This document shows positions 14,999 through 40,653 of a DNA stretch of 53,367 nt, piece after piece; the stretch's first letter is position 1; each line of letters opens with the position of its first letter. Under the pieces are notes generated by a model. That model saw only the letters and a program-made list of their open reading frames with translations, was not told where the DNA came from and did no database searches. The translations under genes were made by a program, and so were the position numbers. The stretch covers positions 1-53,367 of IMG/VR virus record IMGVR_UViG_3300037484_000460, one strand, 5' to 3'. The DNA comes from a virus (taxonomy: Duplodnaviria > Caudoviricetes).

Positions 14999-15009
14999 CG
15001 GCTGGGCCA

Positions 15010-15810: not shown

Positions 15811-16633
15811 CGTCGCGCGCATCACGACGTCGGTTCCCCACGCGTCGGCCGTGCAGTGGCTCGCAATCGAAGATCTGCGGATTGACCCGGAAGCACAGCG
15901 CGACCTCCGAGTGTCCTGGGTGAAACAGCACGTTCAGAAGTTCGACGCAGATCAGCTCGGCTACATCGTCGTCAACATCAGGAGGGACGGGCACCACTAC
16001 GTGATCGACGGCCAGCACCGGGTGGAGCTTCTGCGTGCTGTCGGCTGGGGCGATCAGAAGGTTTCGTGCGAGGTTTTCACTGGGCTTTCCCAGAAGGAAG
16101 AAGCGGCACTCTTCCTCTCGCGGAACGACCGCCTCGCTGTGCGGACCTTCGACAAGTTCCGCGTTCGGATCACGGCCGGCGAACCGGTGGCCACCGACAT
16201 CAACCGCATCGTGCTCGCGGCGAGTCTGTCTCTCGCCCAGGCGACGACCGGATCGGGCCACGTCTCGGCAGTGACGGCCCTCGAACGCATCTATCGTGGC
16301 GGCGGAATCGCGGGGGCTAAGGATGGCGCGTCCGTCCTGGCTCGCACGCTACGGACGATCGAGCAGGCTTGGGGCCGCGAGTCCACCAACTTCGAGGGGC
16401 AGGTGATCGAGGGCGTGGGGCTCACGCTGACGCGCTACGGCACAAAGCTGGAGCAGGCGGGCCTCGTGTCGAAGCTCTCGAAGATCGGCGGGGGAGCGGC
16501 CGGGCTGATCGGGAAGGCGCGCGGCATGCGCGACATGCGAGGCGGAACCGTCGCCTACTGCATCGCCGGGCTCATCGTCGAGCGTTACAACCGCGGCCGA
16601 CGCGGAGGGAAGCTCGACGGCTGGTGGTCGTAA
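15797..16633 (+). CDS. ParB-like (DUF6551-type) protein
   Basis: LRIDPEAQR..YVIDGQHR..EEAALF. Confidence 0.75.
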   Translation: MSKASVARITTSVPHASAVQWLAIEDLRIDPEAQRDLRVSWVKQHVQKFDADQLGYIVVNIRRDGHHYVIDGQHRVELLRAVGWGDQKVSCEVFTGLSQKEEAALFLSRNDRLAVRTFDKFRVRITAGEPVATDINRIVLAASLSLAQATTGSGHVSAVTALERIYRGGGIAGAKDGASVLARTLRTIEQAWGRESTNFEGQVIEGVGLTLTRYGTKLEQAGLVSKLSKIGGGAAGLIGKARGMRDMRGGTVAYCIAGLIVERYNRGRRGGKLDGWWS

Positions 16634-21422: not shown

Positions 21423-21655
21423 GCGCCCCGACCACGATACGCGACGGGATGCGCTGGTGTACCGGTCACTGCGGCCGGCTGCTTCCGCTGAGCAGCTACT
21501 ACCGCAACGGCCGAGGCGAGCCGAACACGGAGTGCAAAGGGTGTAGGCGGGTGAGCCGTCGTGAGTCTTGGCGGCGGTGGATCAAGCGACGAGGGGTGAA
21601 GGTGAGGGAGAACGCACGGTTCCGGGCGATGTACCACGCGACGAGGATGGCGTGA
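21419..21655 (+). CDS. Zn-finger protein
   Basis: CTGHCGRLLPLSSYY..ECKGC. Confidence 0.6.
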   Translation: MSAPTTIRDGMRWCTGHCGRLLPLSSYYRNGRGEPNTECKGCRRVSRRESWRRWIKRRGVKVRENARFRAMYHATRMA

Positions 21656-22632
21656 GCCTTCGCGCGCCCTTCCCATGGTTCGGAGGCAAGTCGAAAGTGG
21701 CTCACCTCGTGTGGGACCGTTTTGGCAACGTGCCGAACTATGTTGAGCCGTTTGCCGGCTCGCTAGCGGTGTTGCTCTCGCGGCCAACACAGGCTGGCAC
21801 CGAAACCGTGAACGACCTCGATGCCTACCTCTGCAATTTCTGGCGTGCCATTCAGGCGGAACCGGTGGAGGTGGCGCTCTGGGCCGGCTGGCCCGTGAAC
21901 GAGACGGATCTTCACGCGCGCCATCGTTGGCTGGTGCGCTACGCCGCGCAGGAGCTTGAGCGCCTGAAGGAAGACCCGCTCTTTCATGACGCGAAGATCG
22001 CCGGCTGGTGGGCCTGGGGCGTTGCCTCGTGGATAGGTTCGGGCTGGTGTCGGGTCCGCGGGGATGGGCCTGCACCGTCCGAGCAGCTCCCGCACCTCGG
22101 GTCCGCGGGGATGGGCCTGCACCGGAAGCTCCCGCACCTCGGGGACGCGGGGAGGGGACTGCACCGGAAGCTCCCGCACCTCGGGGACGCGGGGAGGGGA
22201 GTTCTCGTCTGGTGTCTTGACCTGGCGGAGCGGCTGCGCCGTGTGCGTGTCGCCTGTGGCGACTGGACGCGAGTTATGGGCGAGAGCGTTACCGTGAAGC
22301 ACGGTACGACCGGGGTCTTTCTGGACCCGCCCTATTCCGACGACGAGCACGCCATCGAGTATTCGGCCGGAGGTGACGTCGCGGCCGCGGTCGCGGCGTG
22401 GGCCATCGCGAACGGCGACAATCCGGCGCTGCGAATCGCTCTCTGTGGTTACGCGGGCGAACACGAGATGACCGGCGAGTGGACAGAAGTCGAATGGAAG
22501 GCTAGGGGCGGGTACGGGTCGCAAGGCGACGGGCGCGGGCGAGAGAACGCGGGCCGCGAACGGATCTGGTTCTCCCCACACTGCCTCGGGAAGCGCATCG
22601 CCGGCCCCCTCTTCGCAGACACAAGCGCATGA
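21652..22632 (+). CDS. DNA adenine methyltransferase (Dam/D12 class)
   Basis: PFPWFGGKS, YVEPFAGS, ETVND, FLDPPY. Confidence 0.9.
   Translation: MSLRAPFPWFGGKSKVAHLVWDRFGNVPNYVEPFAGSLAVLLSRPTQAGTETVNDLDAYLCNFWRAIQAEPVEVALWAGWPVNETDLHARHRWLVRYAAQELERLKEDPLFHDAKIAGWWAWGVASWIGSGWCRVRGDGPAPSEQLPHLGSAGMGLHRKLPHLGDAGRGLHRKLPHLGDAGRGVLVWCLDLAERLRRVRVACGDWTRVMGESVTVKHGTTGVFLDPPYSDDEHAIEYSAGGDVAAAVAAWAIANGDNPALRIALCGYAGEHEMTGEWTEVEWKARGGYGSQGDGRGRENAGRERIWFSPHCLGKRIAGPLFADTSA
22050..22200 (+). repeat. Tandem 42-bp coding repeat (LPHLGxAGxGLHRK) inside the methyltransferase
   Basis: AGCTCCCGCACCTCGGG at 22085, 22127 and 22169; a partial copy offset by 47 bp starts at 22050. Confidence 0.9.
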
Positions 22633-25186: not shown

Positions 25187-25506
25187 CCCGAGAGCAATTG
25201 GTAGACTCGCTGGCGGGGCCGCACGACGACGACGGGTTCAGCCATGTATGCGCGAAGTGCAAGTTCAACGTCACGTCGCGCCCGTGCAATTGCTCTCGCC
25301 GCGAGCGTGTCCAAGCCATCGCCCTCGCGCTGGAGGAAGCCTACGCCGCCGGGAAGGCCGATGGACGCGCGGAGACGGCGCTGTGTGCTGGGTGTCACGA
25401 TGCCATCGCGGCCCAGCGAAATGGCTACGCGCGGGGAGTGAGAGAGGCGTATGAGGCGGTGCCCGACGGGCGCATTCTGGCTCTGCTCGCGAAGGCCCCC
25501 GCGTGA
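25183..25506 (+). CDS. Hypothetical protein
   Basis: Coupled ORF. Confidence 0.55.
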   Translation: MTREQLVDSLAGPHDDDGFSHVCAKCKFNVTSRPCNCSRRERVQAIALALEEAYAAGKADGRAETALCAGCHDAIAAQRNGYARGVREAYEAVPDGRILALLAKAPA

Positions 25507-26243
25507 CCCAAGACGCCGAGGCGCTCGTGGCGTTGCTGGCCGCCAAGCACTCCGACGCAGTGTTCGTGGCCGAGTGCAAGACGGGCAGCTCGTGGGACGG
25601 ATGCCGCCGCCTTGATGCCTGGGCGCTACTGAAGACGTGGAGCCCACCGACGGCCATCGGCTACGAGGTCAAGGTGTCGCGCTCTGACTTCCTGCAAGAC
25701 CGGAAGTGGCCGACCTATCTGCCGTTCTGCCACGAACTGTACTTCGTGTGCCCGCCCAAGCTGATCGCCGTCGAGGAGCTACCTTCCGAGGTCGGCCTCA
25801 TGTGGAGCGCCGGCTCCCGGTTGCTGACGAAGCGGAAGGCGGTGCGCAGGGAACCCACGGCCGGTGCGCTCGTGTCGCTCATGAGCTACGTGATGATGAG
25901 CCGGACGCGGATCGTCGGCGACATGTGGGAGGCGAACAGGCGAGATCCGGCAGAGCACTGGCGGGCGTGGCTGGCCGATCGTGAGGAGGGTCAACGGCTG
26001 GGCGTCGAGGTGTCGCGGCGCATCCGTAAGATAGTCAGCGAGGCGAGAGCGGCGCAATCGCGAGCCGAGTACGAGCGGGACCGACTCAAGGGCGTAGAGG
26101 CTCAGCTTGAGGCCCTTGGCCTGGCCAAGGATTTGGGCGCGCTACAGGTGCGGCGGCAGCTTGGCGACGACACGGTAGAGCGGCTCCGACAGATTACGCG
26201 GCTTGCCGGCCAGATAGGCGAGCTGTCTGGACGGCTCCAATGA
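25503..26243 (+). CDS. MmcB-like PD-(D/E)XK nuclease
   Basis: RLDAW..GYEVKVSRSDFLQD.KW..Y..FCHELYFVCP. Confidence 0.8.
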   Translation: MTQDAEALVALLAAKHSDAVFVAECKTGSSWDGCRRLDAWALLKTWSPPTAIGYEVKVSRSDFLQDRKWPTYLPFCHELYFVCPPKLIAVEELPSEVGLMWSAGSRLLTKRKAVRREPTAGALVSLMSYVMMSRTRIVGDMWEANRRDPAEHWRAWLADREEGQRLGVEVSRRIRKIVSEARAAQSRAEYERDRLKGVEAQLEALGLAKDLGALQVRRQLGDDTVERLRQITRLAGQIGELSGRLQ

Positions 26244-26431
26244 CCGAAGACGCTCTCGCCCTCGCGATCGGCCGAGCCGTCCTTCAGGCCGCGCTGGGCC
26301 TGGGGGGGCGTGGGCAGCTCACGGTTCACGTCCGCGGCGACGGCCGGCCGGCGGCCATCGAAATCGCGCGGAGGGAGACGCTCGACCTAACGAAAGTGCT
26401 TGACGCCTTAGAGACTTCGGCCACACAATAG
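26240..26431 (+). CDS. Hypothetical protein
   Basis: ATGA overlap; end of the early operon. Confidence 0.55.
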   Translation: MTEDALALAIGRAVLQAALGLGGRGQLTVHVRGDGRPAAIEIARRETLDLTKVLDALETSATQ

Positions 26432-26494: not shown

Positions 26495-26857
26495 TTGGCG
26501 TTCTTCGGAGGTCCGGGTCTGGCAATCCACTTCACCGACGACGAGATCAAGGGCCTAAGCCCCCGGCTCGTCGCCATGCTGGACGGCGCCCGGGACTACG
26601 CTGGCGTCCCCTTCCGCATCACCTCCGGGGCTCGAACGCCGGAGGAAAACCAAGCGGCGCAGGGTGTGAAGAACACCGCCCACATGCGCGGGCTCGCGGT
26701 GGACCTAGCGTGCGTCGACGGTCGCGAGCGCTGGCACATTCTGACCGCCCTGCTCAATGTCGGATTCTCTCGCGTGGGTGTGTACGACCGGCACATTCAC
26801 GCCGACTGTGATGTCTCCCTGCCGCAGGAAGTCATCTGGTGGGGGAAGTCCCATTGA
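26495..26857 (+). CDS. Endolysin, peptidase M15 family (start codon uncertain)
   Basis: ITSGAR..N..G.KNTAHMRGLAVDL..RVGVY..HIHAD Zn ligands. Confidence 0.9.
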   Translation: MAFFGGPGLAIHFTDDEIKGLSPRLVAMLDGARDYAGVPFRITSGARTPEENQAAQGVKNTAHMRGLAVDLACVDGRERWHILTALLNVGFSRVGVYDRHIHADCDVSLPQEVIWWGKSH

Positions 26858-26985
26858 GCCGAATCTCCGAAGGTTGGCTGCTCTACCCGGAGCATCTCAT
26901 CCTCGGCGGGATAGCCGTGGTGCTCCTCGTGGCCGCGGTCGTCGCGTGGTTCTGGCTCGATCCAACGGTGGAGATGGACGAGTGA
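26854..26985 (+). CDS. Small single-TM protein (43 aa), not in the ORF track
   Basis: TTGA overlap; LILGGIAVVLLVAAVVAWFWL. Confidence 0.6.
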   Translation: MSRISEGWLLYPEHLILGGIAVVLLVAAVVAWFWLDPTVEMDE

Positions 26986-27038
26986 ACCTCGGCGACCGCG
27001 GTCTGTTGTCCAAGGATAAGTGGAAAAGGATGAATGCA

Positions 27039-28550
27039 ATGCTGCTGCAAGAGTACAAGTTCTCGATCACGTTCTGGAAGGCGGTCAGGGGCGTAGCGGC
27101 CGGAGCGGCCGTCGTCGGCGGTCTCGCCGCAATCGACTACGTGCAGGCGAGCGACGAGCTGAAGAAGCTGGCGCCGTGGGCGCTGCCCGTCGTCCTCGGC
27201 CTGCTCACCGGCGGGCGGAACTGGCTCAAGGCCCGGAGTCTCGGCTCGAGTTCGGTGGTCAAGGTGCTCATCGCGGCCGCGGCTCTCCCGTTCCTGGTCG
27301 GGGCCTCGTGCCAGCCGACGCAGCCGTGTACCGGGCCGGCCCCCGACCCGACGTGCATCTGCCTCGCCGGGCAGTGGATCTGTCCGCCTCCGACGACTCC
27401 CGCGGAGCCCTACGACTGCAACAAGCCTCCGGCCAGCTCCGGGCTAGTCAAGGTCAAGGACGCGATCGCCGGCCGCTACGTCGTGGTGCTGAAGCAGCGG
27501 GCACGGACGGCGCTTGAGCTCCAGACCGCGGCCGCGCAGATCCAGACTCTCGCCGGACGGTTCGGGCTCCAGAGCGTGCAGACCTTCCGGGCGCTCGGGC
27601 TGTTCGCGGTGAAGGCGGACGCCAAGGCGGCGGCTTCGCTTGCGACCGATCCCGCGGTGGCCTACGTCCAGGAGGACGGCCGGAAGTTCGCTCGGGTGAG
27701 CTGGGGGCTTGACCGGATCGATCAGCGCGACCTCCCGCTATCCGGCAGCTACGACCCCGGAGCGGACGGGACGGGCGTCCATGCGTTCATTGTGGACACC
27801 GGCTGCCCGGCGGGCGGCGACCTGACGAAGTGCTCTCAGACGCACGGCGACTTCGGCGCGCGCTACGCCGCGGAGTGCTTCACGGCCGTGTCCTTCCGGG
27901 GCTGCATGGACGCCCACGGGCACGGCACCCACGTCGCCGGGACCATCGGCGGGACCGTTTGGGGTGTGGCGAAGAACGTCACGCTGCACGCGGCCCGCGT
28001 CCTCGACGAGAACGGGAGCGGGACCGATACCGGCGTCATCGCGGGCATCGACTACGTTACCGCCTTCAAGCAAGCGAACCCCGGCTTCGGCGTCGTGTCG
28101 AACATGAGCCTCGGCGGGGCCCCGGCGCCGGCACTGGACGACGCGGTGTGCCGCTCCATTGCGGCGGGCGTCGTTCACGTCGTCGCGGCCGGCAACGATT
28201 CGTCCGACGCCTACGGTGCGAGCCCGGCCCGTGTGGTCCAGGCGATTACGATGGGAGCCTCGGACCGCTCCGACCACATCGCGTCGTTCTCCAACTTCGG
28301 CCCGGGCATCGACCTCTTCGGGCCGGGTGTGGACATCGAGAGCGACCGCCCCGAGGGCGGGACGGCGACGTTCTCGGGGACCTCGATGGCGAGCCCGCAC
28401 GGAGCCGGTGCTGCCGCGCTCTACCTCCAGCGTCACCCGGGCTCGACGCCGGCCGAAGTCGAGGCCGGGCTGAAGGGCAACGCGACGCCGGGGAAGATTG
28501 GGACGGCCCCGGCGGACACCACTCAAAGCTTGCTCTACGTGCGGGAGTAG
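27039..28550 (+). CDS. Holin-like membrane domain fused to an I9 propeptide and S8 subtilisin (proteinase K/aqualysin type)
   Basis: Three hydrophobic segments, then GRYVVVLK..VAYVQED (I9), SWGLDRIDQ, IVDTG, HGHGTHVAG, AAGN, SGTSMASPH. Confidence 0.9.
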   Translation: MLLQEYKFSITFWKAVRGVAAGAAVVGGLAAIDYVQASDELKKLAPWALPVVLGLLTGGRNWLKARSLGSSSVVKVLIAAAALPFLVGASCQPTQPCTGPAPDPTCICLAGQWICPPPTTPAEPYDCNKPPASSGLVKVKDAIAGRYVVVLKQRARTALELQTAAAQIQTLAGRFGLQSVQTFRALGLFAVKADAKAAASLATDPAVAYVQEDGRKFARVSWGLDRIDQRDLPLSGSYDPGADGTGVHAFIVDTGCPAGGDLTKCSQTHGDFGARYAAECFTAVSFRGCMDAHGHGTHVAGTIGGTVWGVAKNVTLHAARVLDENGSGTDTGVIAGIDYVTAFKQANPGFGVVSNMSLGGAPAPALDDAVCRSIAAGVVHVVAAGNDSSDAYGASPARVVQAITMGASDRSDHIASFSNFGPGIDLFGPGVDIESDRPEGGTATFSGTSMASPHGAGAAALYLQRHPGSTPAEVEAGLKGNATPGKIGTAPADTTQSLLYVRE

Positions 28551-28555
28551 GCACT

Positions 28556-28960
28556 GTGAAGCTGAAGGACCTTGAAGGACAGCTTCTTCGGTACGAACAG
28601 CGAATGGAGGAGGGGACGTTCCTTCTTGATGTGCATGACCCGTCCAAGGGCAAGGTCACCGAGGTCCGGCCAGCTCACTACTTCATCCCAGTTGCGACCT
28701 TGCCTGAGGCGCACGCGGTCAGCTTTCTGTGTCCTCAAGCATATGCAAAGAACGGTGGCCCGGTTGGAACGCACAGCGTGATGGTTGCGTTCGAAGGAAG
28801 CCCGGTCCCTCCTCACCTCTGCGGCGGTAAGAACGGGCCGACCAGGTGGAAGGCGAGCGGGACATCTATCGAGGACATGACCCTCACCCCCTCTATCCAG
28901 GAGGTGGACGACGGTCTTTGTAGTTGGCACGGTTTCGTAACGAATGGAGATGCGTCATGA
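28556..28960 (+). CDS. DUF6527-like Cys/His protein
   Basis: FLCP..TLTPSI..CSWHGFVTNG. Confidence 0.7.
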   Translation: MKLKDLEGQLLRYEQRMEEGTFLLDVHDPSKGKVTEVRPAHYFIPVATLPEAHAVSFLCPQAYAKNGGPVGTHSVMVAFEGSPVPPHLCGGKNGPTRWKASGTSIEDMTLTPSIQEVDDGLCSWHGFVTNGDAS

Positions 28961-29010: not shown

Positions 29011-29271
29011 CTACTCGTCGCGGAGGATCTCGAGGGCCTGGCGCTTGGTCGCGTAGACCGGGCCCTCGACGTGGATCTGGCGCGACTCATCCCAGCGCAG
29101 GACGCCCCAGCCACCGGGGCGCTCGGCCACGTAGTCCTTGGCGTGCCGGCGGGCGGCGAGGGCGCGCTCCTGGATCACGGCGTACTGCTCGGGGGTGCGG
29201 CGCTTGGCCGCTCCGGTCCCGGCCTTGCCGGCTCGGCTCAGGTGCTCGCGGAGCGTAATCTCGCGGGCCAT
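29011..29271 (-). CDS. Small basic, probably DNA-binding protein
   Basis: HLSRAGKAG..AKRRTPEQ..ARR pattern; RBS AGGAC. Confidence 0.65.
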   Translation of the reverse strand: MAREITLREHLSRAGKAGTGAAKRRTPEQYAVIQERALAARRHAKDYVAERPGGWGVLRWDESRQIHVEGPVYATKRQALEILRDE

Positions 29272-29556
29272 CTACGTCCTCGCCCTGAGCGTCTCGTAGG
29301 CCCGGCGCATCGCCCGGTACTCGGACCGGATGATGCCCGGCAGCGAGGTCCGCGAGGCGCGCAGCGTGCTACCGGTGCCAGCGAGCTGCTCGCACACCTG
29401 GGCCGTGCGTCCGCCGCCAAGGTGCTCGATCACATAGACCGGCCGGTCGGCGCCGGCCGAGAAGCGCCGCGTCACGCGCTCCTCGGTGATGGAGTCGGTG
29501 TAGCTGATCTGGACGTGGCCGCTGGTCTCTACCGTCATCTGCATTCGCTTCATCAT
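29272..29556 (-). CDS. Hypothetical protein
   Basis: RBS GAGGAGG. Confidence 0.75.
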   Translation of the reverse strand: MMKRMQMTVETSGHVQISYTDSITEERVTRRFSAGADRPVYVIEHLGGGRTAQVCEQLAGTGSTLRASRTSLPGIIRSEYRAMRRAYETLRART

Positions 29557-29616
29557 GGCCTCCTCAGCGCGGGCCTTACCCGCGGACGCCCCCGGGAGGG
29601 CGTTTCGGCCTGGTGG

Positions 29617-29829
29617 TCAGTCTCCCGAGGCCAGGTAGGAGCGGATGAGGGCCTCTGCGGCTGCGTGCGCCATGGGCTCGCTGGTGAGCCCCAGGCACTC
29701 CCAGCCAGCAGCTCGCTCGCCGAGCCGGGTCACGAGATGGACGCTGTAGCTGCCATCGCTGACCGGCATGATTCTGGCCCGCTCGCCCTCGGTCTCCACA
29801 GTCCATCGGTCGCTCATCTTGGCCTCCAT
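29617..29829 (-). CDS. Hypothetical protein (start 29829 or 29817)
   Basis: Directly after a consensus promoter. Confidence 0.7.
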   Translation of the reverse strand: MEAKMSDRWTVETEGERARIMPVSDGSYSVHLVTRLGERAAGWECLGLTSEPMAHAAAEALIRSYLASGD

Positions 29830-29836
29830 ACCTACC

Positions 29837-29865
29837 AATATAGTCCGGCAACATGTTGCTGTCAA
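29837..29865 (-). promoter_or_regulatory. Strong leftward sigma70 promoter with a palindrome in the spacer
   Basis: TTGACA-17 bp-TATATT; GCAACATGTTGC palindrome at 29848-29859. Confidence 0.85.
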
Positions 29866-29899
29866 GGGAAAAGCGACAAGCCCGGGAGGGAAATCGCAC

Positions 29900-31918
29900 A
29901 TGCTGCGTAAGTCCTTTGTTTTGGTGGCACTTCTGGCGCTACCGGCGTGCACGGGCATCCCCTGCATCCCCTACCCTGGGGGCCCGCCGTGCCCAGGGCC
30001 GACCCCGACGCCAACTCCGACCCCCACGCCCACACCACCGAGTCCGGTCTGCCAACCGCCCGACCTGGTGACCTCGTGCTGGCACCAACCTCCAGGTCAG
30101 CCGTGGATCTACATCTGCCCGGGTGGCACGCAGGTGGGCGACCCGAAGGAGTGCCCGACCGTCGTGCCGGGCGAGCCGCTGAAGGCGGTCGGTGCCCAGT
30201 TTCAGCCGCCGATCCTAGGCAGCGTCACCACGCATCACAACTGGCCGCTTGTGGACACCGTGGCGCTCGACGCCATTGCGGCGGCCAGCCTCAACGCGAC
30301 GGCCATGCGCCTGCCACTCATGGCCGACGACCGAGGGCCAGCCTACGAGCTGTACGAGCGCGTTCCTGGCACCACGTCGGCCTACGTGTGGCACCCCGGA
30401 GAAGGCGAGCCCCAGCACGCCTACGAGCTTGCCGCCCTCTTGCGCAACGGCCCCGCGATCCAGGTGCTCAAGCGTCGCGGGCTCAAGATCGCGGACACCG
30501 CTCCGAAGTTCGATCTCACGAAGTTCTCGAGAGCGTTCGACGACAACCTCGGAGGTGTCCTCGAGCACGCCCGCGCGAAGGGCATCTTCGTCAACATCGG
30601 TTTGTGGGACGGCTGGGGCATGGTCCACACGGAGTTGCCTCTGTTCTGGCGGCTCGGCAACAACGTTCAGGGAATCGACATCGGCTATTGCTCCGACATG
30701 CGGCAGGCTCCGCACCCGACCATCCTTGCGCTCGTCGATCACGTCGTGCAGGTGGCGGGCCGATTCCCTCACGTCTACTGGGAGCTGGGCAACGAGGCGA
30801 ACCGCTGCCGGCCCGCGGCCGCGTTCGTGGACGGGATCCGCCAGCAGATTCGCGCCACCGAAACGCGCCTCGGCTACGCGCGGCACCTCTGGAGTCCGGG
30901 CACGCTTAACGACGATCTATCGGGGGAGCGCGGCTCCGAGTACGACTACCTCTCAGCGCACGGCTTCCCGAAGCCAGCGCAGCCGGCGCCCACGGAGGTG
31001 AACGAGTTCGGCCCGATGCGCGGGACGGAGTACCTCCAGAGGCTCGCGCAGGCGAAGCAGCTAGGCACCACTTTCCACTGGTGGTTCGACGACAACGCTT
31101 ACGGTGGGGCTTGGGATGACCCCGCGTGGGAGCGGGAATGGCTCGAGACGATGGCCGCGATGCGAGGCACCACGCCCGTCACCGGCTGCTCCGACATCCC
31201 GAACGAGGACGCCGTCGCGGTCTCGCCGCGCCCGCCCGCCGATTCCGAGATCGCATCCGCGATCAACGCCGCGATGGTCAAGGTCACCGGCTGCGCCGTC
31301 GGCTCGCAGTGCTTCATCGAAGAGCCGATGCAGAGCTTCTTCGCTAAGGTCACGGAGGAGATCCGGAAGGCGAGCCCCTCGATGTGCGCCGGGGTCCAGA
31401 CCGACAGCGAAGGCCCCGTGGACCAGATCTGCGCGGGCACGCGTGACCGCTGCCAGGGCAACCACGTGTTCTCTTGCCGCGCGGACGGCTGCCATCACGG
31501 CGCGGTCGGCTGGGCCCCGGGTAGCTACACCAACCGCAACGGCGATACCTGGGTGCGGCCGACGACCACTTCTTGCTTGCCCGCCCCGCCCCTCGGGAAG
31601 ATCGTGGTCACGAACGCGGGGGTCAACCGCGTCGTCGTCGACGCGACGCCGAAGACGTGCGACGACCAGGAATGGAACCGCCGCTGCTCTACCGGCAACA
31701 CCTGCTCACCCGGCGGCGCCGAGGGCAACACGGACCGTGAGGCGGTCGAGCGCCAGTGGGGACCGTACACATGGACCGTGGACGGCGCGTCCTGTCCGAC
31801 GTGCTTCCTCGACGGCGGGAACCCGCTGCGGCTCGTGGCCCCTGGCCAGGACGGTAAGACGATCCGCGTGACGGGCGGGAACGGCGTCTTCGCGGAGATC
31901 GTGGGGGCGCATCCGTGA
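29900..31918 (+). CDS. Lipoprotein with a PT linker, a GH-A clan TIM-barrel glycoside hydrolase-like domain and Cys-rich domains
   Basis: MLRKSFVLVALLALPAC lipobox; YWELGNE acid/base motif, VNEFG. Confidence 0.7.
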   Translation: MLRKSFVLVALLALPACTGIPCIPYPGGPPCPGPTPTPTPTPTPTPPSPVCQPPDLVTSCWHQPPGQPWIYICPGGTQVGDPKECPTVVPGEPLKAVGAQFQPPILGSVTTHHNWPLVDTVALDAIAAASLNATAMRLPLMADDRGPAYELYERVPGTTSAYVWHPGEGEPQHAYELAALLRNGPAIQVLKRRGLKIADTAPKFDLTKFSRAFDDNLGGVLEHARAKGIFVNIGLWDGWGMVHTELPLFWRLGNNVQGIDIGYCSDMRQAPHPTILALVDHVVQVAGRFPHVYWELGNEANRCRPAAAFVDGIRQQIRATETRLGYARHLWSPGTLNDDLSGERGSEYDYLSAHGFPKPAQPAPTEVNEFGPMRGTEYLQRLAQAKQLGTTFHWWFDDNAYGGAWDDPAWEREWLETMAAMRGTTPVTGCSDIPNEDAVAVSPRPPADSEIASAINAAMVKVTGCAVGSQCFIEEPMQSFFAKVTEEIRKASPSMCAGVQTDSEGPVDQICAGTRDRCQGNHVFSCRADGCHHGAVGWAPGSYTNRNGDTWVRPTTTSCLPAPPLGKIVVTNAGVNRVVVDATPKTCDDQEWNRRCSTGNTCSPGGAEGNTDREAVERQWGPYTWTVDGASCPTCFLDGGNPLRLVAPGQDGKTIRVTGGNGVFAEIVGAHP

Positions 31919-32115
31919 CCAAGCGCAAGGGTCGCCGGTCGCAAAGTCTGGGCCACAAGACCGTCGAGGACGTCGAAGCGTACAGCGCTGGCCGGCAAGC
32001 CTGGGACCGTGGCATCCCCAAGGGTTCGTGCCCCTACGAATCGGGCTCTCGGATTGCGCAGAAATGGTGTCAGGGCTGGGCCCAAGCGAAGGACGATTCA
32101 CTGGAGAAGGCATGA
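31915..32115 (+). CDS. Rmf/CrpP-fold small protein
   Basis: AYSAGRQA..G....CPY......WCQGW. Confidence 0.65.
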   Translation: MTKRKGRRSQSLGHKTVEDVEAYSAGRQAWDRGIPKGSCPYESGSRIAQKWCQGWAQAKDDSLEKA

Positions 32116-32627
32116 CGCCCGAAACCGCCGACCTTCTGAAGACGGTGGGACCGCCCCTCGTTGGAGCGATAGCAGGCTGGCTCAGCGGCTTCCTCGGCGG
32201 CGTCATGAAGTACGGCGCGATCAAGGCGAAAGTCGAAGGTTGGGACGCGGTGCGCAAGGAAGACAACGACGGGCACGAGACCGCAGACGGCCGCCTTCAC
32301 CTGGAGATCGAGGAGCTGCGGAAGGACTTCGACAAAGACCTGAATCGCCAGAGGCTCGACTGCGAGCGGTCCTTCAGCGAGGGCCGCCGCGACGCCGACG
32401 CGCTGCGTGGGTCGATCAACGGTCTTGGCGGTCGGGTGAACAAGCTCGACCGCGAGATCGGAGAGGCGAAGGCCGGCGCCGAGAAGCTTGTCGAGGCAGA
32501 GCGCCATCGTATCGACGAGCACGCGAAACGGAGCGAGGAGCAACAGCGGCAGAACGCCGAGTATTACGCCGCCGAAGCGAAGCGCGCGCTGGAGCGGGTC
32601 GAGAAGCTGATTGCGGAACGAGCATGA
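32112..32627 (+). CDS. N-terminal TM plus coiled-coil protein (lysis accessory?)
   Basis: Hydrophobic N-terminus, charged helical remainder. Confidence 0.65.
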   Translation: MTPETADLLKTVGPPLVGAIAGWLSGFLGGVMKYGAIKAKVEGWDAVRKEDNDGHETADGRLHLEIEELRKDFDKDLNRQRLDCERSFSEGRRDADALRGSINGLGGRVNKLDREIGEAKAGAEKLVEAERHRIDEHAKRSEEQQRQNAEYYAAEAKRALERVEKLIAERA

Positions 32628-32860
32628 TCTACCTCGTGGTGACGATTCTCCTCGTGCAGCTACTCCAGGCCGCCTGGCTGATCAGCCATGAGCGTCAACT
32701 CAGCAAACTCCCCGCACTACTCGAGAAGCGGGACGAGGAGATGTTCAGGCGGTTCCGCGCCGAGGTGATCGCCGCACTTAACGAGCGGATGGACACCAAA
32801 GCCGAAGAGCGAGCGCTAGGGAGTCGGCGATCGTCCGACGAAGCGCTAAGGACCAGGTGA
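32624..32860 (+). CDS. Small TM protein
   Basis: MIYLVVTILLVQLLQAAWLI; ATGA overlap. Confidence 0.6.
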   Translation: MIYLVVTILLVQLLQAAWLISHERQLSKLPALLEKRDEEMFRRFRAEVIAALNERMDTKAEERALGSRRSSDEALRTR

Positions 32861-32866
32861 GGGTCA

Positions 32867-35800
32867 GTGGCAGCACCGACCGTTAGGGGCGTCGGCGCCT
32901 TCGGAAGCGGGACCACTAGTTTCGTCGCTGCGGTCCCGACCGGGGGCAGCGCTCCGCAGGCCGGCGATGCGATGTACATCGTCATGGAGTCGAGCGACTC
33001 CACGACGGCCGCCGGAACGCCGACCACTCCCACCGACTGGACGAAGCTGTTCGAGAACACCGTAGGCGCCGGAGCCACGGGCGTCACGACCCTGACGATC
33101 TTCGGCAAGATCGCCGGTGCGAGCGAGGCCAACGTTACGGTCAGCGGCGTAGGGAACCACTGCGCCGGGGCGATGATCGTCATCGCCGGTCACGGGTTGG
33201 CGCACATCACTGCGACGGTGGTAGGTGAGCCGACCGACAACGGGACGGGCACCACCGGGCGGACGATCTCATCGATCAACGGGCCGGCCGACTCGCTGAT
33301 CATCGGGGCCATCGGACTCAGCGACGACGCGAACGACACGACGAACATGTCGAACGTCGCCAACGCCAACCTCACAGGGCTCACGGAGCACATCGACCAA
33401 ACGGTCTCAACCGGTGCAGGCGGCGGCGTCTGCATCCACACCGGGGCCTGTGCCGGGACGAGCAGCGGGTCGACGACGTGGGATCACGACACCGCGGAAC
33501 GGGCGCAGTCGGTACACCTCGGGGTTCCGCCGACAGGGGTCTCTCCGAGGCTGATCCAGAAGGCTGGTGGCACGGCGGACAACACGACGTCCGTGGTGGT
33601 GGCCTATCCCGCCGACGTCGTGACCGGCGACCTGCTGGTTATCGCGGTTGTGAAGTACAGCCCTTCGGACGACGCCTTCGTCGTCGGGGACATCTCCAAG
33701 AGCGCAGGCACGGCGACGCTCGGTTCATTCACGCTCGACCAAAACGTAAACTTCGACTTCCAGGCTTCATCGGACAGGATGGCGGGCGCCATCTACTCCG
33801 CGCCAGTCACGGCTGGAGGCTCATGCACGATCACCGTGGGCGGTGCGGTGGCCGGCTCGTTCCTCGTGATGTCGGTCTCGGAGTGGGAGGGGCTCGACAC
33901 TGGGGCCTCCCGTCTCGAGGACTCGGACACGGGGACGGGCGCGAGTGGGGCACCAGCTACTGCTACCGCGACGAGCGCGGGCGCCGCGCTGTTCGCCGGC
34001 ATCGTCCTGACCAACTACGCGGTTGTGACGACTCACACTCCGGGCGCGGACTACAACACCCTCTTTGAGTCAGAGGACGGCGCAACCCACGCGACAGGAA
34101 GCGCCGAGTATCGCGTTGTCACGGCAGGGACGACGGACGCGGCCGACTGGGTTGCGCCGACGACCTCGGACTACGCCTGCGCCCTCGCCGTGTACAAGGC
34201 CGCTACGGCAGCGCAGGAGGTGACGGGGGCGCATCTCGCCTCCACGTTCCAGACCTTTGCGCCCAGCATCGTAGGTGAGGGCGCGGTCGCCGGGGCACAT
34301 GTCGCCAGCGCACTCCAGCTCTTTCCGCCCACGCTGCGCTACGCAGCGGTCGGGACGTTCCTCGCCTCGACCCTACAGCTCTTCTCGCCGGTCGTACAGC
34401 ACACGCCGGCTTGGCCCTTGCGGGCGAGCACGAACGGTCGCTACCTCGAGGACCAGCGCAGCATCCCGTTCCTGGTGAACGGGACGGCCGTCTGGAGCCT
34501 GACGCACAACTTGACCTTGAGCGAGGCGACCAACGTCCTCGACAGGCTGAAGGCGAAGGGTCTCAACTCGGTCATCGTCTCGGCGCCTGACTCCTTCGAT
34601 GAGAGCGGGACACCATCGGACCCCGTGTCGGACGACAAACAGGGCAATCAGCCGTTCACGAGCAACGACCTGACGCAGCCCATTGAAGCCTATTGGAGCC
34701 ACGTTGACGACGTCCTCGACGCCTGCAAGGCGCGGAACTTCCTCGTCTACTTCACTCCGCTCTATCTGGGTTTCAGCGACACCGAGGGCTTCAGGGACGT
34801 GCTTGCGTCGAACAGCGTGGCCAACGCGACGACCTACGGCGAGTTCCTGGGCACACGTTACGGTGGGTTGGGTAACCTCGTCTGGCTGAACGGCGGGGAC
34901 GTGGCGCCGACCACGTGGGCATCGAAGGTGCGCGCGATCCAGGACGGGATCATCTCGACGGCATCCGTCAGCATGCCGCACGCGACGCACTGGGGACCAG
35001 ACGAGAACCCGTGGGACTTCACCACCGATTTCGCTGAATCGCGCTTCCAAATCCACAACGTCTATACCTACAACCCGGTCGGCAATAGGACGAATGACAG
35101 CTACAACCACTCGCCGACGAAGCCGACGATCTTCCTTGAGACCGACTACGAGGGCGCAGGCGGGGACGACATCTGGGCCGAGCCGTACCGCGCGATGTTC
35201 AGCGGCGCGATGGGGCACTTCAGCGGGAACATCCCGCTCTGGTACTGCGGCGACAACAACGGCGGATGGAGCGCTGCGCTAGACAGCACGGGGTTCACGC
35301 GCCTAGCCCACCTGTGGGAACTGTTCAACGCTCGGCAGTGGTGGAAGCTCGTCCCGTCGAGAGATGGCGCGTTGATGACGTCGGGGAACGGCAACCCCGA
35401 CCTCGACTCCGGGTGCCAGGGTGCCCTGACCGCCGATCAGAAGCTCGCGATGATCTTCTTCCCGTCGCAGCTGACCGTGACGGTGGACTTGACCGCTGTG
35501 GACGCCCTGGGCGCCGGATCGTCGATACAGGCGGACTGGTTCAACACGCGCACCGGAGAGGTCACGAGCGACGGGTCGTACGGCGTGACCGGCACGCACA
35601 ACTTCACGCCCCCGAGCAGCAGTTCGGAGTTCGTCCTCGTCCTGACCTCGGACGTGCCGCCAGCGACGGACTCCTCGGCTACCGGAGCGCATAGGGCGTC
35701 GTCGCTTCAGCTCTTCGCGGGGACGCTGCGCCACGTGGTGGTCGGGGTCCATCGGGCCTCTACGCTTCAGCTCTTCGCTCCCACCGTCGCTCCTGGTGCG

Positions 35801-36811
35801 GTGACGATCGCCGGAGCGCACCTATCCTCCACCCTCCAGGTCTTCCCCGGCACGCTCGCCGTCGGTGCCGTCACTGTGAGCGGCGCGCACCTGGGGAGTG
35901 GGCTTCAGCTATTCGCGCCGACCGTATCGCAGGGCGGAGCGACGCAGGATGTGACTGGCGTCCATCGGGCGTCGACCCTGGTCGTCAACGCTCCAACGCT
36001 GACCCATATTGTGGCTGGCGCCCATCTTGGACCCGCGCTCCAGGTCTTCGCCCCGACCCTGTCTCATGCCGCCGTGGGGGCGCACGTCTCCAGCGCGTTC
36101 CAGGTGTTCGCGCCGGCCTTGGCGTACCGGATCGTCGGTGCCCACGTTGCCTCTACTCTCCAGACGTTCACGCCGACAACCGCGTACCGCGTTGCGGGCG
36201 CGCATCGGACGAGCGCCCTCCAGGTCTTTGCTCCAACCGTCTCGACGTTCGGCACGATCAGCGGCGCCAACGTGCCGAGCACCCTCCAGCTCTTCTCAGG
36301 TACGGCGTCCGCCGGGCCGGTCGCGGTCCAGGGGGCGCACGTCTCGAGCAGTCTTGCGGTCTTCTCGCCGAGTGTGTCGCGCACCGTCGCCGGTGCGCAC
36401 CTGGGCTTAACGCTCCAGCTCTTCGCGCCCAGCACCATCTATCGCGTCTCCGGGGCGCACGTAGGCCCGACGCTCACGCTGTTCGCTCCGACGATCACGA
36501 CCTTTGGAACGATCGCGGGAGCGCACGCCCCTAGCACGCTTCAGCTCTTCGCGCCAACGGTCACGCCTGCGTCGTGGCCGATCGTAGGCGCGCACTCGGG
36601 CTCGACCCTTGTCGTGTTCACCCCGACGCTAGGCTACGTGGTAGCTGGAGCGCATCGGGGGCCGATGTTGCAGGTCTTCTCGCCGACTGTGTCCGGCGGG
36701 ATCCAGTACCTCGTGATCTCCCAGCCCGGTGCGGGGAGCCACGGCACGTCGTTGGGTGAGAGTCGGACGAGTTCCGCCCTCAACGGAAGTCGGAACTCGA
36801 CAGAAATATAA
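32867..36811 (+). CDS. Large virion adhesin/fibre with a DUF4038 (apiosidase-like) hydrolase, a collagen-binding-like domain and 19 shaft repeats
   Basis: NGRYLEDQRSIPFLVNGTAVW, VWLNGGD, KPTIFLETDYE, WFNTRTGE; repeats GAHxxSxLQxFxP. Confidence 0.8.
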   Translation: MAAPTVRGVGAFGSGTTSFVAAVPTGGSAPQAGDAMYIVMESSDSTTAAGTPTTPTDWTKLFENTVGAGATGVTTLTIFGKIAGASEANVTVSGVGNHCAGAMIVIAGHGLAHITATVVGEPTDNGTGTTGRTISSINGPADSLIIGAIGLSDDANDTTNMSNVANANLTGLTEHIDQTVSTGAGGGVCIHTGACAGTSSGSTTWDHDTAERAQSVHLGVPPTGVSPRLIQKAGGTADNTTSVVVAYPADVVTGDLLVIAVVKYSPSDDAFVVGDISKSAGTATLGSFTLDQNVNFDFQASSDRMAGAIYSAPVTAGGSCTITVGGAVAGSFLVMSVSEWEGLDTGASRLEDSDTGTGASGAPATATATSAGAALFAGIVLTNYAVVTTHTPGADYNTLFESEDGATHATGSAEYRVVTAGTTDAADWVAPTTSDYACALAVYKAATAAQEVTGAHLASTFQTFAPSIVGEGAVAGAHVASALQLFPPTLRYAAVGTFLASTLQLFSPVVQHTPAWPLRASTNGRYLEDQRSIPFLVNGTAVWSLTHNLTLSEATNVLDRLKAKGLNSVIVSAPDSFDESGTPSDPVSDDKQGNQPFTSNDLTQPIEAYWSHVDDVLDACKARNFLVYFTPLYLGFSDTEGFRDVLASNSVANATTYGEFLGTRYGGLGNLVWLNGGDVAPTTWASKVRAIQDGIISTASVSMPHATHWGPDENPWDFTTDFAESRFQIHNVYTYNPVGNRTNDSYNHSPTKPTIFLETDYEGAGGDDIWAEPYRAMFSGAMGHFSGNIPLWYCGDNNGGWSAALDSTGFTRLAHLWELFNARQWWKLVPSRDGALMTSGNGNPDLDSGCQGALTADQKLAMIFFPSQLTVTVDLTAVDALGAGSSIQADWFNTRTGEVTSDGSYGVTGTHNFTPPSSSSEFVLVLTSDVPPATDSSATGAHRASSLQLFAGTLRHVVVGVHRASTLQLFAPTVAPGAVTIAGAHLSSTLQVFPGTLAVGAVTVSGAHLGSGLQLFAPTVSQGGATQDVTGVHRASTLVVNAPTLTHIVAGAHLGPALQVFAPTLSHAAVGAHVSSAFQVFAPALAYRIVGAHVASTLQTFTPTTAYRVAGAHRTSALQVFAPTVSTFGTISGANVPSTLQLFSGTASAGPVAVQGAHVSSSLAVFSPSVSRTVAGAHLGLTLQLFAPSTIYRVSGAHVGPTLTLFAPTITTFGTIAGAHAPSTLQLFAPTVTPASWPIVGAHSGSTLVVFTPTLGYVVAGAHRGPMLQVFSPTVSGGIQYLVISQPGAGSHGTSLGESRTSSALNGSRNSTEI

Positions 36812-38307: not shown

Positions 38308-38558
38308 CGGTCTGCACGAAGCGCCGATATGCCAGTGAAGTCGCGGCCAAGGCCGCACATCACCGTGCCGGCTACCGCCTTCGGGTCTACCGCTGCGAGA
38401 ACTGCGGGGCCCTGCACACGACGAACGCCGACAAGACGCCCCGGCTCGACTGGAGGGACGCCAAGCTACGGCGCCGGCCGGCTCGGACGCTGGCCCCCGA
38501 GCGCACCTTGGCCGAGGTGGAGGCGATCGCCGCCCAGATGAGGGCACGCGCCTCATGA
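38304..38558 (+). CDS. Hypothetical Zn-binding protein
   Basis: CTKRRY..RVYRCENCGALHTT. Confidence 0.65.
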   Translation: MTVCTKRRYASEVAAKAAHHRAGYRLRVYRCENCGALHTTNADKTPRLDWRDAKLRRRPARTLAPERTLAEVEAIAAQMRARAS

Positions 38559-39205
38559 GGCGTCAGGGCCTGGCGGGCAAGGGGAAGCCCCACCCCACGA
38601 CGGCTAAGGGCTCTAGAGCCGTAGCTACGGGGTTGGGGGCGAACGTAGGGAGCGTCAAGACCTCCATTACCCCTAAACAGGCCCGCTTCGTCCAGGAGTA
38701 CCTCATCGATTTGAACGCCACGCAGGCGGCAATCCGGTCCGGGTACAGCCGGAAGACGGCCGAACAGCAGGGCCCCAGGCTGTTGGGAAATGCTGGAGTT
38801 GCGGTGGCCATCAAGGCGGGGACGAAGGCCACGGCGGCCGAGACGGGCCACACGCGCGAGCGGGTGTTGAAGGAGCTGGCCATCTTGGCCTACTCAGACG
38901 CCGTGACGCACTACCTGGCAGACGATAAGGGGAACGTCTTCCTTGCGCCGGGTGCTCCCGAGGGGGCCCTGCGTGCCATCTCCTCGGTGAAGCGTCGGTT
39001 CACGACCACAGGTAGCGGCAAGGGCCAGCGGACCACGTGCGACATCGAAATCAAGCTCTGGGACAAGCCGGGGACCCTGAAGCTCTCCGGCCGGCATGTG
39101 GGCGTGGAGGGCTTCTTCGACAAGGTCGAGCATAGCGGGCCCGCGGGTGCCCCGATCCCAGTGCAGATCTACATGCCCGACAACGGGCGGGCGACCGAGA
39201 AGTGA
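38555..39205 (+). CDS. terS: Terminase small subunit
   Basis: TPKQARFVQEYLIDLNATQAAIRSGYS. Confidence 0.95.
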   Translation: MRRQGLAGKGKPHPTTAKGSRAVATGLGANVGSVKTSITPKQARFVQEYLIDLNATQAAIRSGYSRKTAEQQGPRLLGNAGVAVAIKAGTKATAAETGHTRERVLKELAILAYSDAVTHYLADDKGNVFLAPGAPEGALRAISSVKRRFTTTGSGKGQRTTCDIEIKLWDKPGTLKLSGRHVGVEGFFDKVEHSGPAGAPIPVQIYMPDNGRATEK

Positions 39206-40653
39206 GTACGGCCCTCGCCGAGCGTGTCGTGAGCATCCGGCCACAGCCGGGCCCGCAAGAGGCGTTTCTCTCGTCGCTGGCGGACATAGCCATCGTCGGC
39301 GGTGCGGCAGGCGGTGGCAAGACGTGGAGCCTACTCCTCGAGCCCTTGCGTCACGTCGAGAATAAGCACTTCGGCGCGGTGATCTTCCGGCGCACCTACC
39401 CGCAAATCACGAATGAGGGTGGCCTGTGGGACGAGGCCGCGGAGCTCTACCCGCACCTTCGCGCAGGCCGAAACGAGAACGACCTCGAGTACCGCTTCCC
39501 TTCCGGGATGACGGTCTCGTTCTCTCACCTGCAGCACGGGAAGGACGCCGACAAGTGGACCGGAGCGCAGGTGCCCCTCATCGGCTTCGACCAGCTCGAG
39601 GAGTTCGAGGAACGGCAGTTCTGGTACCTCCTCACTCGCAACCGCTCGGCTCGCGCCGGAGTGCGTCCCTACGTGAGGGCCACGTGCAATCCGGTACCGG
39701 ATGACGACATCGTGGGCGGATGGTTGAACCGGCTGATCTCGTGGTGGTGGGACCCCGGGACGGGATATGCGATCCCGGAGCGGTCGGGTGTCCTGCGCTG
39801 GTTTGTGCGGCTTGGCGAGGAGCTTCACTGGGCCGATACGCGCGAGGAGTTGCTGCGTCGCTTCCGCGACCGACCCGAAACGGAGATCCGGCCGAAGTCG
39901 CTGACGTTCATCCCGGCCGACCTCGACGACAACCCGGCCCTCGAGCTTGCCGACCCCGACTACCGCGCCTGGCTCATGGCGCAGCCGCTCGTGGAGCGGG
40001 AACGGCTCCTCAAGGGCAACTGGAAGATCAAGGCCACCAAGGGCAAGGTCTTCAACCGCGAGTGGTTCAAGTCCATTCTGTCGGCGGTTCCTGCGGACGT
40101 AACGTCGTGGGTCCGCTACTGGGACAAGGCGGGTACGGAGGGCGGGGGCAAGTTCTCGGCGGGCGTACTCGTGGGCAAGCGGGTGAACGGGCGTACGGTC
40201 CTCGCCAACGTAGTCCGTGGCCAGTGGTCCGCGCTCAACCGCGAGACGATCATCAAGCAGACGGCCGAGTCGGACCGTGCGCGCTTCGGCAACGTAGAGA
40301 TCTGGACGGAGCAGGAGCCCGGCTCGGGTGGCAAAGAGAGCGCCGAGGCCACGGTACGGATGCTCGCCGGGTTCGCGGTCCACGCGGACCGAGTAACCGG
40401 CGACAAGGTGACGCGGGCGGGTCCGCTCGCCGCCCAGGTCGAGGCGGGCAACGTCGACCTCCTCTCTCCGCTCGGTGAGCCCGCGGCTGGCACGCAGGTG
40501 TCGGCCCTTGAAGCCTTCCTTGTCGAAGCCCAGAACTTCGACGGCACCGGGGTCTGCGACCAGATCGACGCGGCCTCCGGCGCCTTCAACAAAGTCCACG
40601 GTGGCCCCGCGCCCGCCCGCATGGTCAACCGCTTTACCGGAGAGGCGATCTAG
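39202..40653 (+). CDS. terL: Terminase large subunit
   Basis: PQPGPQE, Walker A GGAAGGGKT, IGFDQLEE, ATCNP, nuclease YWDKA..DQIDA. Confidence 0.95.
   Translation: MSTALAERVVSIRPQPGPQEAFLSSLADIAIVGGAAGGGKTWSLLLEPLRHVENKHFGAVIFRRTYPQITNEGGLWDEAAELYPHLRAGRNENDLEYRFPSGMTVSFSHLQHGKDADKWTGAQVPLIGFDQLEEFEERQFWYLLTRNRSARAGVRPYVRATCNPVPDDDIVGGWLNRLISWWWDPGTGYAIPERSGVLRWFVRLGEELHWADTREELLRRFRDRPETEIRPKSLTFIPADLDDNPALELADPDYRAWLMAQPLVERERLLKGNWKIKATKGKVFNREWFKSILSAVPADVTSWVRYWDKAGTEGGGKFSAGVLVGKRVNGRTVLANVVRGQWSALNRETIIKQTAESDRARFGNVEIWTEQEPGSGGKESAEATVRMLAGFAVHADRVTGDKVTRAGPLAAQVEAGNVDLLSPLGEPAAGTQVSALEAFLVEAQNFDGTGVCDQIDAASGAFNKVHGGPAPARMVNRFTGEAI

Follow-up and report, generated by a model that had tools for sequence, protein, structure and literature searches.

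The lysis region of phage record IMGVR_UViG_3300037484_000460 raises the question of why a gene lying directly behind an endolysin gene should join, in a single frame, a membrane segment of holin size to a complete subtilisin-like protease. The window analysed here is the whole 53,367-bp record, which carries direct terminal repeats and has a completeness estimate of complete; Pfam and PHROG scans of the genome identified a temperate, tailed phage. The gene in question is a 503-aa open reading frame (ORF) at 27039-28550 on the plus strand. It belongs to a same-strand run made of an M15 endolysin gene, a gene for a 48-aa protein with one transmembrane (TM) helix, the Peptidase S8 (S8) ORF itself and a DUF6527 gene (Table 1), and the site scan found no terminator-like site between the endolysin gene and the S8 ORF. 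Its place after the endolysin and the small TM gene, described in an earlier note on this DNA, agrees with the Pfam and PHROG endolysin matches. We propose that the ORF encodes a lysis-cassette polyprotein, a natural fusion kept by selection and expressed late with the endolysin, which would give rise to a holin-like peptide and a lipoprotein pro-protease; we put the probability of this reading at roughly one in two.

The C-terminal part of the ORF scored 121.7 bits against Pfam Peptidase_S8 (PF00082; cut-off 21.8) and matched the PHROG 'protease' annotation with an E-value of 1.6e-53. Aqualysin-1 (4dzt) aligned to residues 221-500 (E 7e-72), the match extending to residue 273 of its 276-residue chain; since this alignment runs to the chain end, a C-terminal secretion domain is absent. 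The catalytic residues D253, H295 and S449 and the oxyanion residue N386 aligned to the aqualysin motifs and were invariant in 13 of 13 aligned sequences, so the full D/H/S triad claimed earlier is upheld. These alignments place the domain, with its active site intact, in the proteinase K/aqualysin group of Peptidase S8; identity to the aqualysin I/proteinase K subtilases (MEROPS S8A) is about 50% over residues 221-500. The I9 propeptide of the earlier note was less evident to the family profile, Pfam I9 (PF05922) remaining below threshold over residues 147-213 (16.5 versus 21.2 bits, E 0.014). It was recovered by other means: phmmer aligned residues 141-500 to pro-proteinase K (8rse_A), with PCSK9 and pro-subtilisin E also aligning from about residue 141; the AlphaFold2 (AF2) model contained a beta-alpha-beta-beta-alpha-beta unit at 142-215 with a predicted local distance difference test (pLDDT) score of 75-90, the whole model reaching only 66.9; and Foldseek matched the model to protease pro-forms over 377-400 columns. 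An N-terminal propeptide with an I9 fold is therefore a predicted feature in common with the aqualysin group. Unlike those enzymes, the phage protein has no C-terminal pro-domain, carries a lipoprotein-type rather than a plain signal and a Cys/Pro-rich tether, shares with its phage subgroup an added CPAGGDLTKC loop after the catalytic Asp, and is encoded in a lysis cassette behind a fused membrane module. The tether, proposed earlier as a Cys/Pro linker, is borne out by its composition (Table 1). All through the family the tether keeps a P(Y/F)DC motif, and the AF2 model placed only two 3-residue strands (107-109 and 112-114) within residues 88-134.

The first 72 residues, referred to here as module 1, could in principle owe their place to a lost stop codon or to an assembly or sequencing error that fused a holin gene to a protease gene. 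High-GC genomes do yield long spurious ORF extensions, and the frame is open here as far back as 26757. We find this explanation hardly credible, as the fusion frame is open in three independent contigs (the window, contig L084, and contig L098, which repeats the fusion at 98.8% identity) and a different N-terminal module occurs in six further proteins. GC content at third codon positions (GC3) was 0.90 over each of 27039-27254, 27255-27440 and the protease region in the same frame, compared with 0.54 further upstream. Codon differences within module 1 were mostly synonymous, with synonymous to non-synonymous counts of 10:4 against L084 and 6:0 against L098, and because of this excess we conclude that module 1 is under purifying selection. 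By these codon statistics the first 72 residues are genuinely coding and in frame with the protease. The start is most likely ATG 27039, because a Shine-Dalgarno-like AAAGGA motif 6-9 nt upstream of it is kept in the window, L098 and L084, and because L098 has a stop codon immediately before the equivalent ATG. The record's own gene call (P0129) begins 19 codons earlier at GTG 26982 and gives 522 aa; GC3 of that extension was only 0.71 (17 codons). Two in-frame ATGs three codons apart (M-N-A-M, 27030-27041), present in the window and L084 and not in L098, recall dual-start holin genes, the extra residues adding no charge.

An exhaustive HMMER search with module 1 against 1.84 billion representative proteins returned three hits. 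Two are free-standing small proteins, P0124 (67 aa, E 3.2e-11, a cluster of 3 members on 3 contigs) and P0125 (77 aa, E 1.1e-6). They align to module residues 5-65 and 6-67 and end in ...ARN(Y/W)(L/F)KN..., where the signal segment starts in the fusion. Because these homologs span the whole module and stop at the fusion point, we conclude from the alignments that module 1 exists elsewhere as a complete, autonomous small membrane protein and that the window gene is a gene fusion. The remaining hit, to 15 stretches of a 2688-aa protein, was discounted as compositional. A word-based search with the 72-aa module produced 21 candidates with none at E <= 0.01, and a search of viral contigs with the module-1 alignment produced 82 stretches with none confirmed.

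'Holin-like', the term used in the earlier note, appears to be a fair description of module 1 by size, place and composition, holin membership being a prediction only. The module has 72 residues and a basic tail and adjoins an M15 endolysin gene in both the window and L084; its helices are weak. Language-model neighbours of both N-terminal modules were 65-81 aa long and mostly viral, and the nearest named ones were holin families at similarities of 0.86-0.88, which serve as leads only. Class II holins and pinholins such as S21 of phage 21, as generally described and as far as the accessible text of PMC6139136 covers them, share with the module and its free-standing 67-77-aa homologs a length of about 70 aa, two helices of which the first is Gly/Ala-rich and weakly hydrophobic, a basic C-terminal tail and a place next to an endolysin. 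The phage module differs from them in having no family match and in continuing at its C-terminus into a signal peptide and an enzyme.

To what extent the fusion recurs was examined with 21 fetched homologs, which were sorted into three classes by their N-terminus. Module 1 was fused in one of them (P0013), a second module of 84-92 aa occupied the same fusion point in six (P0004, P0005, P0006, P0007, P0009 and P0011), and the remaining 14 were plain forms starting at a lipoprotein-type signal peptide. Among the plain forms were all 9 chromosomal-scale homologs, which are about 400 aa long with a lipoprotein-I9-S8 layout (9/9). These chromosomal proteases, for example those from Burkholderiales, Polarisedimenticolia and Stigmatella records, share with the phage protein the order of lipobox, tether, propeptide and S8 domain at 47-55% identity, as well as a Pro-rich tether with the (Y/F)DC motif; unlike it they have their signal peptide at the very start of the chain, an N-module is absent from all 14 plain forms, and several are encoded on contigs of Mb scale. 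We rejected homology of the two modules (hhalign probability 0.4%). Two apparently unrelated membrane modules have thus been joined in frame to the same signal peptide, which we read as convergent fusion, and because the two modules differ, the join is hard to explain except by selection for it. Identity along the chain pointed the same way. Against P0013 it was 94% in the module, 60% in the signal segment, 21% in the tether, 36% in the propeptide and 51% in the S8 domain, and against P0004 the corresponding values were 22%, 90%, 96%, 99% and 97%. This pattern indicates mosaic exchange in which the signal-peptide segment is the joint between modules.

The same fusion beside an endolysin was sought in other phages, as the earlier note had suggested, and it was found in L084, the contig of P0013, directly downstream of an M15 endolysin gene. 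In contig L097, an 81%-identical homolog of the 48-aa TM gene is followed by two small genes and then by a plain lipoprotein protease gene with a strong GGAGGA ribosome site. The two small genes encode a 68-aa CxxC protein (L097 242-448) and a strongly cationic 48-aa peptide (L097 448-594) with a net charge of about +7 and an amphipathic start, which recalls the outer-membrane-disrupting peptide of phiKT; remnants of this peptide (VNLG... and ...GQGPKG) lie just 5' of module 1 in the window, L098 and L084. On viral contig L003, a plain lipoprotein S8 gene precedes genes for a 94-aa multi-TM protein with a weak holin PHROG match (E 0.052), a secreted protein and a terminase. Other searches added little: a word-based search among shorter proteins with module 2 (P0004 residues 1-85) gave 108 candidates with none passing, and a degenerate pattern for module 2 had no match in viral contigs. 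A search of viral contigs with P0001 gave one weak locus, and the family alignment gave 80 loci, mostly generic S8, of which L003-L006 and L067 were examined. The pattern F[IV][IV]DTGCP[AS] hit 17 metagenome and 8 genome stretches; 3 of the 25 were true relatives and the other 22 were dropped as chance matches.

The segment at which the modules meet, VVKVLIAAAALPFLVGAS, is the strongest hydrophobic stretch of the ORF (2.12), and it runs into FLVGASC at residues 85-91, so that the lipobox Cys is residue 91 and not 92. Its architecture, RNWLKARSLGSSSVVK-VLIAAAALPFLVGAS-C91, comprises a basic n-region, an h-region and the Cys, and fits a PROSITE-like lipoprotein rule when read from GTG 27255. The same motif forms the N-terminal signal peptide of P0010 (on a 61.6-kb contig), P0012, the L097 protein and 9 of 9 fetched chromosomal homologs, as GAS-C or P(A/G)-C, which supports the lipobox-like third segment of the earlier note. 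Lipoprotein-type signals in P0013, P0016, P0017, P0025 and the window gene at 29900 end in LP(A/G)C; the Pro at -2 is unusual for a classical lipobox and may reflect the host clade.

How a lipoprotein could arise from such a chain allows three answers. In the first, full-length chains are cleaved by signal peptidase II. In the second, most of the lipoprotein protease comes from initiation at GTG 27255 (product MVKVLIAAAALPFLVGASC), and the long form is minor or regulatory as in dual-start holin genes. This GTG is in frame, would create a textbook lipoprotein signal with its Cys at position 19 and has a GTG equivalent in L098. It has, however, no Shine-Dalgarno motif at working distance (the nearest GGAG lies 17 nt upstream), whereas the free-standing gene of L097 has its GGAGGA 5 nt before the ATG; in L084 the codons at this place are GGT GTC ATC AAG GTC CTG, an n-region without any ATG, GTG or TTG, and P0005 lacks a basic n-region after its module. 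We therefore consider initiation at 27255 very unlikely, and of the two routes offered by the earlier note, cleavage by signal peptidase II appears the better one because the GTG is unconserved and its Shine-Dalgarno motif too distant. In the third answer the lipobox is unused, three helices tether the pro-protease in the inner membrane as an uncleaved zymogen, and only propeptide autocleavage frees the enzyme. Cys91 does lie far beyond the usual position about 15-35 residues from the N-terminus, so that in the full ORF the signal does not lie at the N-terminus, and the -3 residue of the lipobox is Gly rather than Leu. Yet every one of the 8 fused forms retains lipobox and Cys, the motif is the one that relatives have as their N-terminal signal, and the segment is the recombination joint between modules, as would be expected if its function must persist; we regard an uncleaved zymogen as quite unlikely. 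Both of these alternatives to cleavage by signal peptidase II are possible for this phage in particular.

We infer the following topology, cleavage, timing and substrates for the polyprotein. A complete, holin-sized phage membrane protein, fused in frame with a host-type lipoprotein pro-subtilase at the signal peptide of the latter, would insert with its N-terminus inside, because its charges (a basic N-terminus, a neutral first loop and a +4 second loop, RNWLKARSLGSSSVVK, before the third helix) fit the positive-inside rule. The third helix would act as a type II signal peptide and bring Cys91 to the periplasmic face. Lgt and signal peptidase II would then split the chain into a three-helix membrane peptide of about 90 aa and a lipid-anchored zymogen on its Cys/Pro-rich tether. 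In subtilases the propeptide is removed by autoprocessing and degraded. Autocleavage of the I9 propeptide would likewise free an aqualysin-like protease of about 29 kDa into the periplasm of a diderm host, where, and also after lysis, it might digest envelope proteins or debris. A diderm host is probable, as all of the nearest cultured-phage portals and M15 endolysins belong to phages that infect such bacteria. With the lipid anchor and tether placed N-terminal of the propeptide, the mature protease would be soluble and released; the envelope-anchored protease of the earlier note would hold for the zymogen and not for the catalytic domain, and the S-layer, matrix or receptors named there would be putative targets. 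Action in the periplasm and release at lysis are favoured because the protein has no C-terminal export domain and the host is probably diderm.

Holins, endolysins and spanins account for the lysis of diderm bacteria by phages, and the freed protease might have a role in the outer-membrane step. A stronger version of the polyprotein reading holds that signal peptidase II yields a three-helix holin, its third helix being the spent signal peptide, and a pro-protease that replaces the spanin step by cutting the protein links between outer membrane and wall in a phage without spanin, the two modules having converged on this design; we consider this version unlikely. According to the part of the spanin literature available to us, about one phage in 7 is without a recognisable outer-membrane breacher, and Kongari et al. 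counted 91 spanin-less phages among 677 in their survey, 31 of them with an orphan lipoprotein gene (PMC6139136). In the accessible text of that survey, a lipoprotein gene in the lysis cluster is rare and the word 'protease' does not occur. In one studied case, as summarised in the available part of its report, the outer membrane is breached by a cationic peptide, a non-spanin route (bioRxiv 10.1101/515445).

The fused gene shares with spanins (Rz/Rz1, T1 gp11) and the phiKT disruptin the presence of a lipoprotein gene in a lysis cluster, and with o-spanins a Pro- and Cys-rich mature N-terminus. It differs in carrying a 370-aa protease, in having no adjacent i-spanin and in an N-module without a periplasmic coiled coil. 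Identity as an o-spanin or u-spanin was rejected, the mature part being enzymatic, about 410 aa long and without a C-terminal TM domain; the PHROG Rz-like spanin matched the fusion only at E 0.17. A lipobox scan of the whole genome found only two credible lipoproteins, both large enzymes, and no canonical spanin, no small lipoprotein and no adjacent pair of TM/coiled-coil protein and lipoprotein. There is no adjacent type II coiled-coil partner, the nearest candidate (199 aa, 32028-32627) lying 3.5 kb away. With a TM helix at its N-terminus and an extended, helix-like charged region, this protein has an i-spanin look; it is followed by a 79-aa one-TM protein (32621-32860). GC3 marked these two as the coding frames rather than the 283-aa ORF at 32009-32860; neither had a family match, and no lipoprotein partner was found nearby. 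A candidate small holin or antiholin is the 48-aa TM protein, which had no Pfam or PHROG family match. The M15 endolysin has no signal or TM segment.

In colicin lysis or bacteriocin release lipoproteins, the cleaved, stable signal peptide stays in the inner membrane and adds to envelope damage. Both these proteins and, as proposed here, the phage fusion would be products of signal peptidase II, but the former are tiny with ordinary N-terminal signals, whereas in the phage a three-helix protein of 90 aa would take the part of the 'signal peptide'. Type 10 secretion systems, as described in the accessible part of the literature, release chitinases or toxins by means of a cassette of holin, M15-type peptidase and spanin. 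As far as that description goes, they share with this phage the linkage of exoenzyme genes to a holin and peptidase cassette, and they differ in being chromosomal, phage-derived loci of separate genes, while here a complete phage encodes cargo and membrane module as one polypeptide.

These systems also bear on the view that the protease is an accessory exoenzyme, a moron or dispersal factor outside the lysis mechanism. A captured host lipoprotein protease and glycanase-like genes would then digest matrix, S-layer, receptors or food proteins, and the N-module would merely serve as a membrane anchor or export aid. The lipoprotein-I9-S8 layout of the chromosomal homologs (9/9) fits this view, and type 10 secretion systems, in the sources as available, do place cargo genes beside lysis cassettes. 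In addition, the genes downstream encode a 672-aa lipoprotein whose Cys/Pro tether is similar, as well as a GH140-like protein of 1314 aa, homologs of S8 and 672-aa genes occur together in L084 and weakly in L005, and S8 genes without an assigned role are found in 67 of 50,697 phage records. However, cargo leaves unexplained why two unrelated modules of holin size converged on the same signal peptide. Against it also stands the position of the gene, immediately behind that of the endolysin in the same orientation and without an intervening terminator-like site; a plain signal peptide suffices for export in relatives, so that an added anchor needs another reason. We regard the exoenzyme explanation, the chief rival, as unlikely.

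Several observations nevertheless weigh against the polyprotein reading. Of the two TM segments said in the earlier note to end in GLLTGGRNWLK, the motif stands at residues 53-63, but the helices are weaker than implied: the first is Gly/Ala-rich with a peak hydrophobicity of only 1.48 over 19 aa, and the second has only 16 residues between K43 and R60. AF2 confidence across these helices was below 55, and together these values make the membrane topology uncertain. Module 1 matched no Pfam holin family (weak hits only, DUF389 at E 0.17 and DUF7541 at E 0.24) and no PHROG holin (best an unknown-function family, E 0.066), and P0124 and P0125 matched no Pfam or PHROG holin family either; the claim of a holin-like domain is left with size, position, the free-standing homologs and the weak language-model neighbours. 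The literature search, within the texts available, found no precedent for signal peptidase II cutting at a lipobox that lies 90 residues deep in a polytopic precursor. Taken at about 50% identity, the proteases form an ordinary family of chromosomal lipoproteins, encoded on contigs of up to 2.57 Mb, and the gene might be no more than cargo. Nor is the fusion obligatory, because the close relative L097 works with a plain lipoprotein form. The TM and coiled-coil protein at 32028-32627 might be an unrecognised i-spanin. Finally, linkage to lysis genes was read from the DNA of the window, L084, L097 and L003, the module-2 fusions and P0124/P0125 being known as proteins only.

If the polyprotein reading is true, a lysis-cassette protease made as a single polypeptide with a membrane protein of holin size would represent a lysis component of a new kind, and it would be an example from nature of signal peptidase II at work far within a polytopic precursor. 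A search of titles and abstracts retrieved no S8 protease in a phage lysis cassette and no holin-lipoprotein-protease fusion. What appears to be new is the union of a holin-sized module and a lipoprotein pro-subtilase in one lysis-cassette polypeptide, whose parts are of known kinds and whose function is unproven. The locus also illustrates lysis-module shuffling with the signal-peptide segment as the exchange joint, and as a single gene it offers a simple, testable system. Were the protease mere cargo, the locus would still show that phages carry lipoprotein proteases and glycanases of host type to be used at release.

Table 1 Features of the fused gene, its neighbourhood and the rest of the phage genome
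Feature	Position	Strand	Evidence or remark
S8 fusion ORF, 503 aa	27039-28550	+	Within longer open frame 26757-28550
N-module 1, aa 1-72	27039-27254	+	Basic N-terminus, helix about 17-35, short loop, 16-residue helix 44-59, basic tail RNWLKAR
Internal lipoprotein-type signal segment, aa 73-90, and lipobox Cys91	27255-27311 (Cys91 27309-27311)	+
Cys/Pro-rich tether, aa 91-140	27309-27458	+	12 Pro, 6 Cys (Cys91 counted)
I9-like propeptide, aa about 141-215	27459-27683	+	Alignment, AF2 model, Foldseek
S8 catalytic domain, aa 216-503 and stop	27684-28550	+	Pfam PF00082; no C-terminal extension
Catalytic codon D253	27795-27797	+
Catalytic codon H295	27921-27923	+
Oxyanion Asn codon N386	28194-28196	+
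Catalytic codon S449	28383-28385	+
Possible 19-codon N-terminal extension	26982-27038	+	GTG 26982 overlaps stop codon of 48-aa gene
Predicted promoter-like site upstream of endolysin	26400-26429		Score 9/12
M15 endolysin, 120 aa	26495-26857	+	Pfam Peptidase_M15_3 PF08291 E 9.6e-12; PHROG endolysin phrog_894 E 2.6e-16
48-aa single-TM protein	26839-26985	+	Overlaps endolysin's end; one strong helix, Kyte-Doolittle 2.8 over 19 aa
DUF6527 gene	28565-28960	+	Directly 3' of protease gene
Three small genes	29011-29967	-	86, 94 and up to 116 aa
Predicted promoter of minus-strand genes	29865-29837	-	Near-consensus sigma-70-like, 11/12
672-aa lipoprotein-type protein	29900-31918	+	Signal LALPAC
199-aa TM protein	32028-32627	+	Long charged helix-like region
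79-aa one-TM protein	32621-32860	+
1314-aa ORF	32867-36811	+	Apiosidase-like GH140 domain, Pfam E 8.5e-40
Tape measure	2770-5472		PHROG/Pfam scan
Integrase	10136-11122		PHROG/Pfam scan
ParB-like genes, two	14929-15810, 15797-16633		PHROG/Pfam scan
Methyltransferase	21568-22632		PHROG/Pfam scan
MmcB-like gene	25503-26243		PHROG/Pfam scan
Small terminase	38555-39205		PHROG/Pfam scan
Large terminase	39202-40653		PHROG/Pfam scan
Portal	40665-42134		PHROG/Pfam scan
Scaffold	47534-48307		PHROG/Pfam scan
Major head protein	48430-49575		PHROG/Pfam scan

Downstream of the protease gene, the 672-aa protein has, besides its lipoprotein-type signal, a PT repeat and a tether rich in Cys and Pro that resembles the one in the protease. 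It had no Pfam, PHROG or PDB match; its GNEANR motif recalls clan GH-A glycosidases. In L084 a homolog (47% over 104 aa) adjoins the S8 gene, as does a weak one in L005. The 1314-aa ORF has no signal peptide and contains, besides the GH140 domain, a collagen-binding-type domain, both flanked by many repeats of about 17 aa (GAHxxSxLQxFxPT); lying just before the terminase genes, it may encode a virion depolymerase or tail fibre. The DUF6527 gene has a GC3 of about 0.6-0.7, compared with about 0.9 in its neighbours, and this low value suggests a recent acquisition. The three small minus-strand genes, which had no family matches, break the plus-strand run and, with their own predicted promoter, look like an independently expressed insert.

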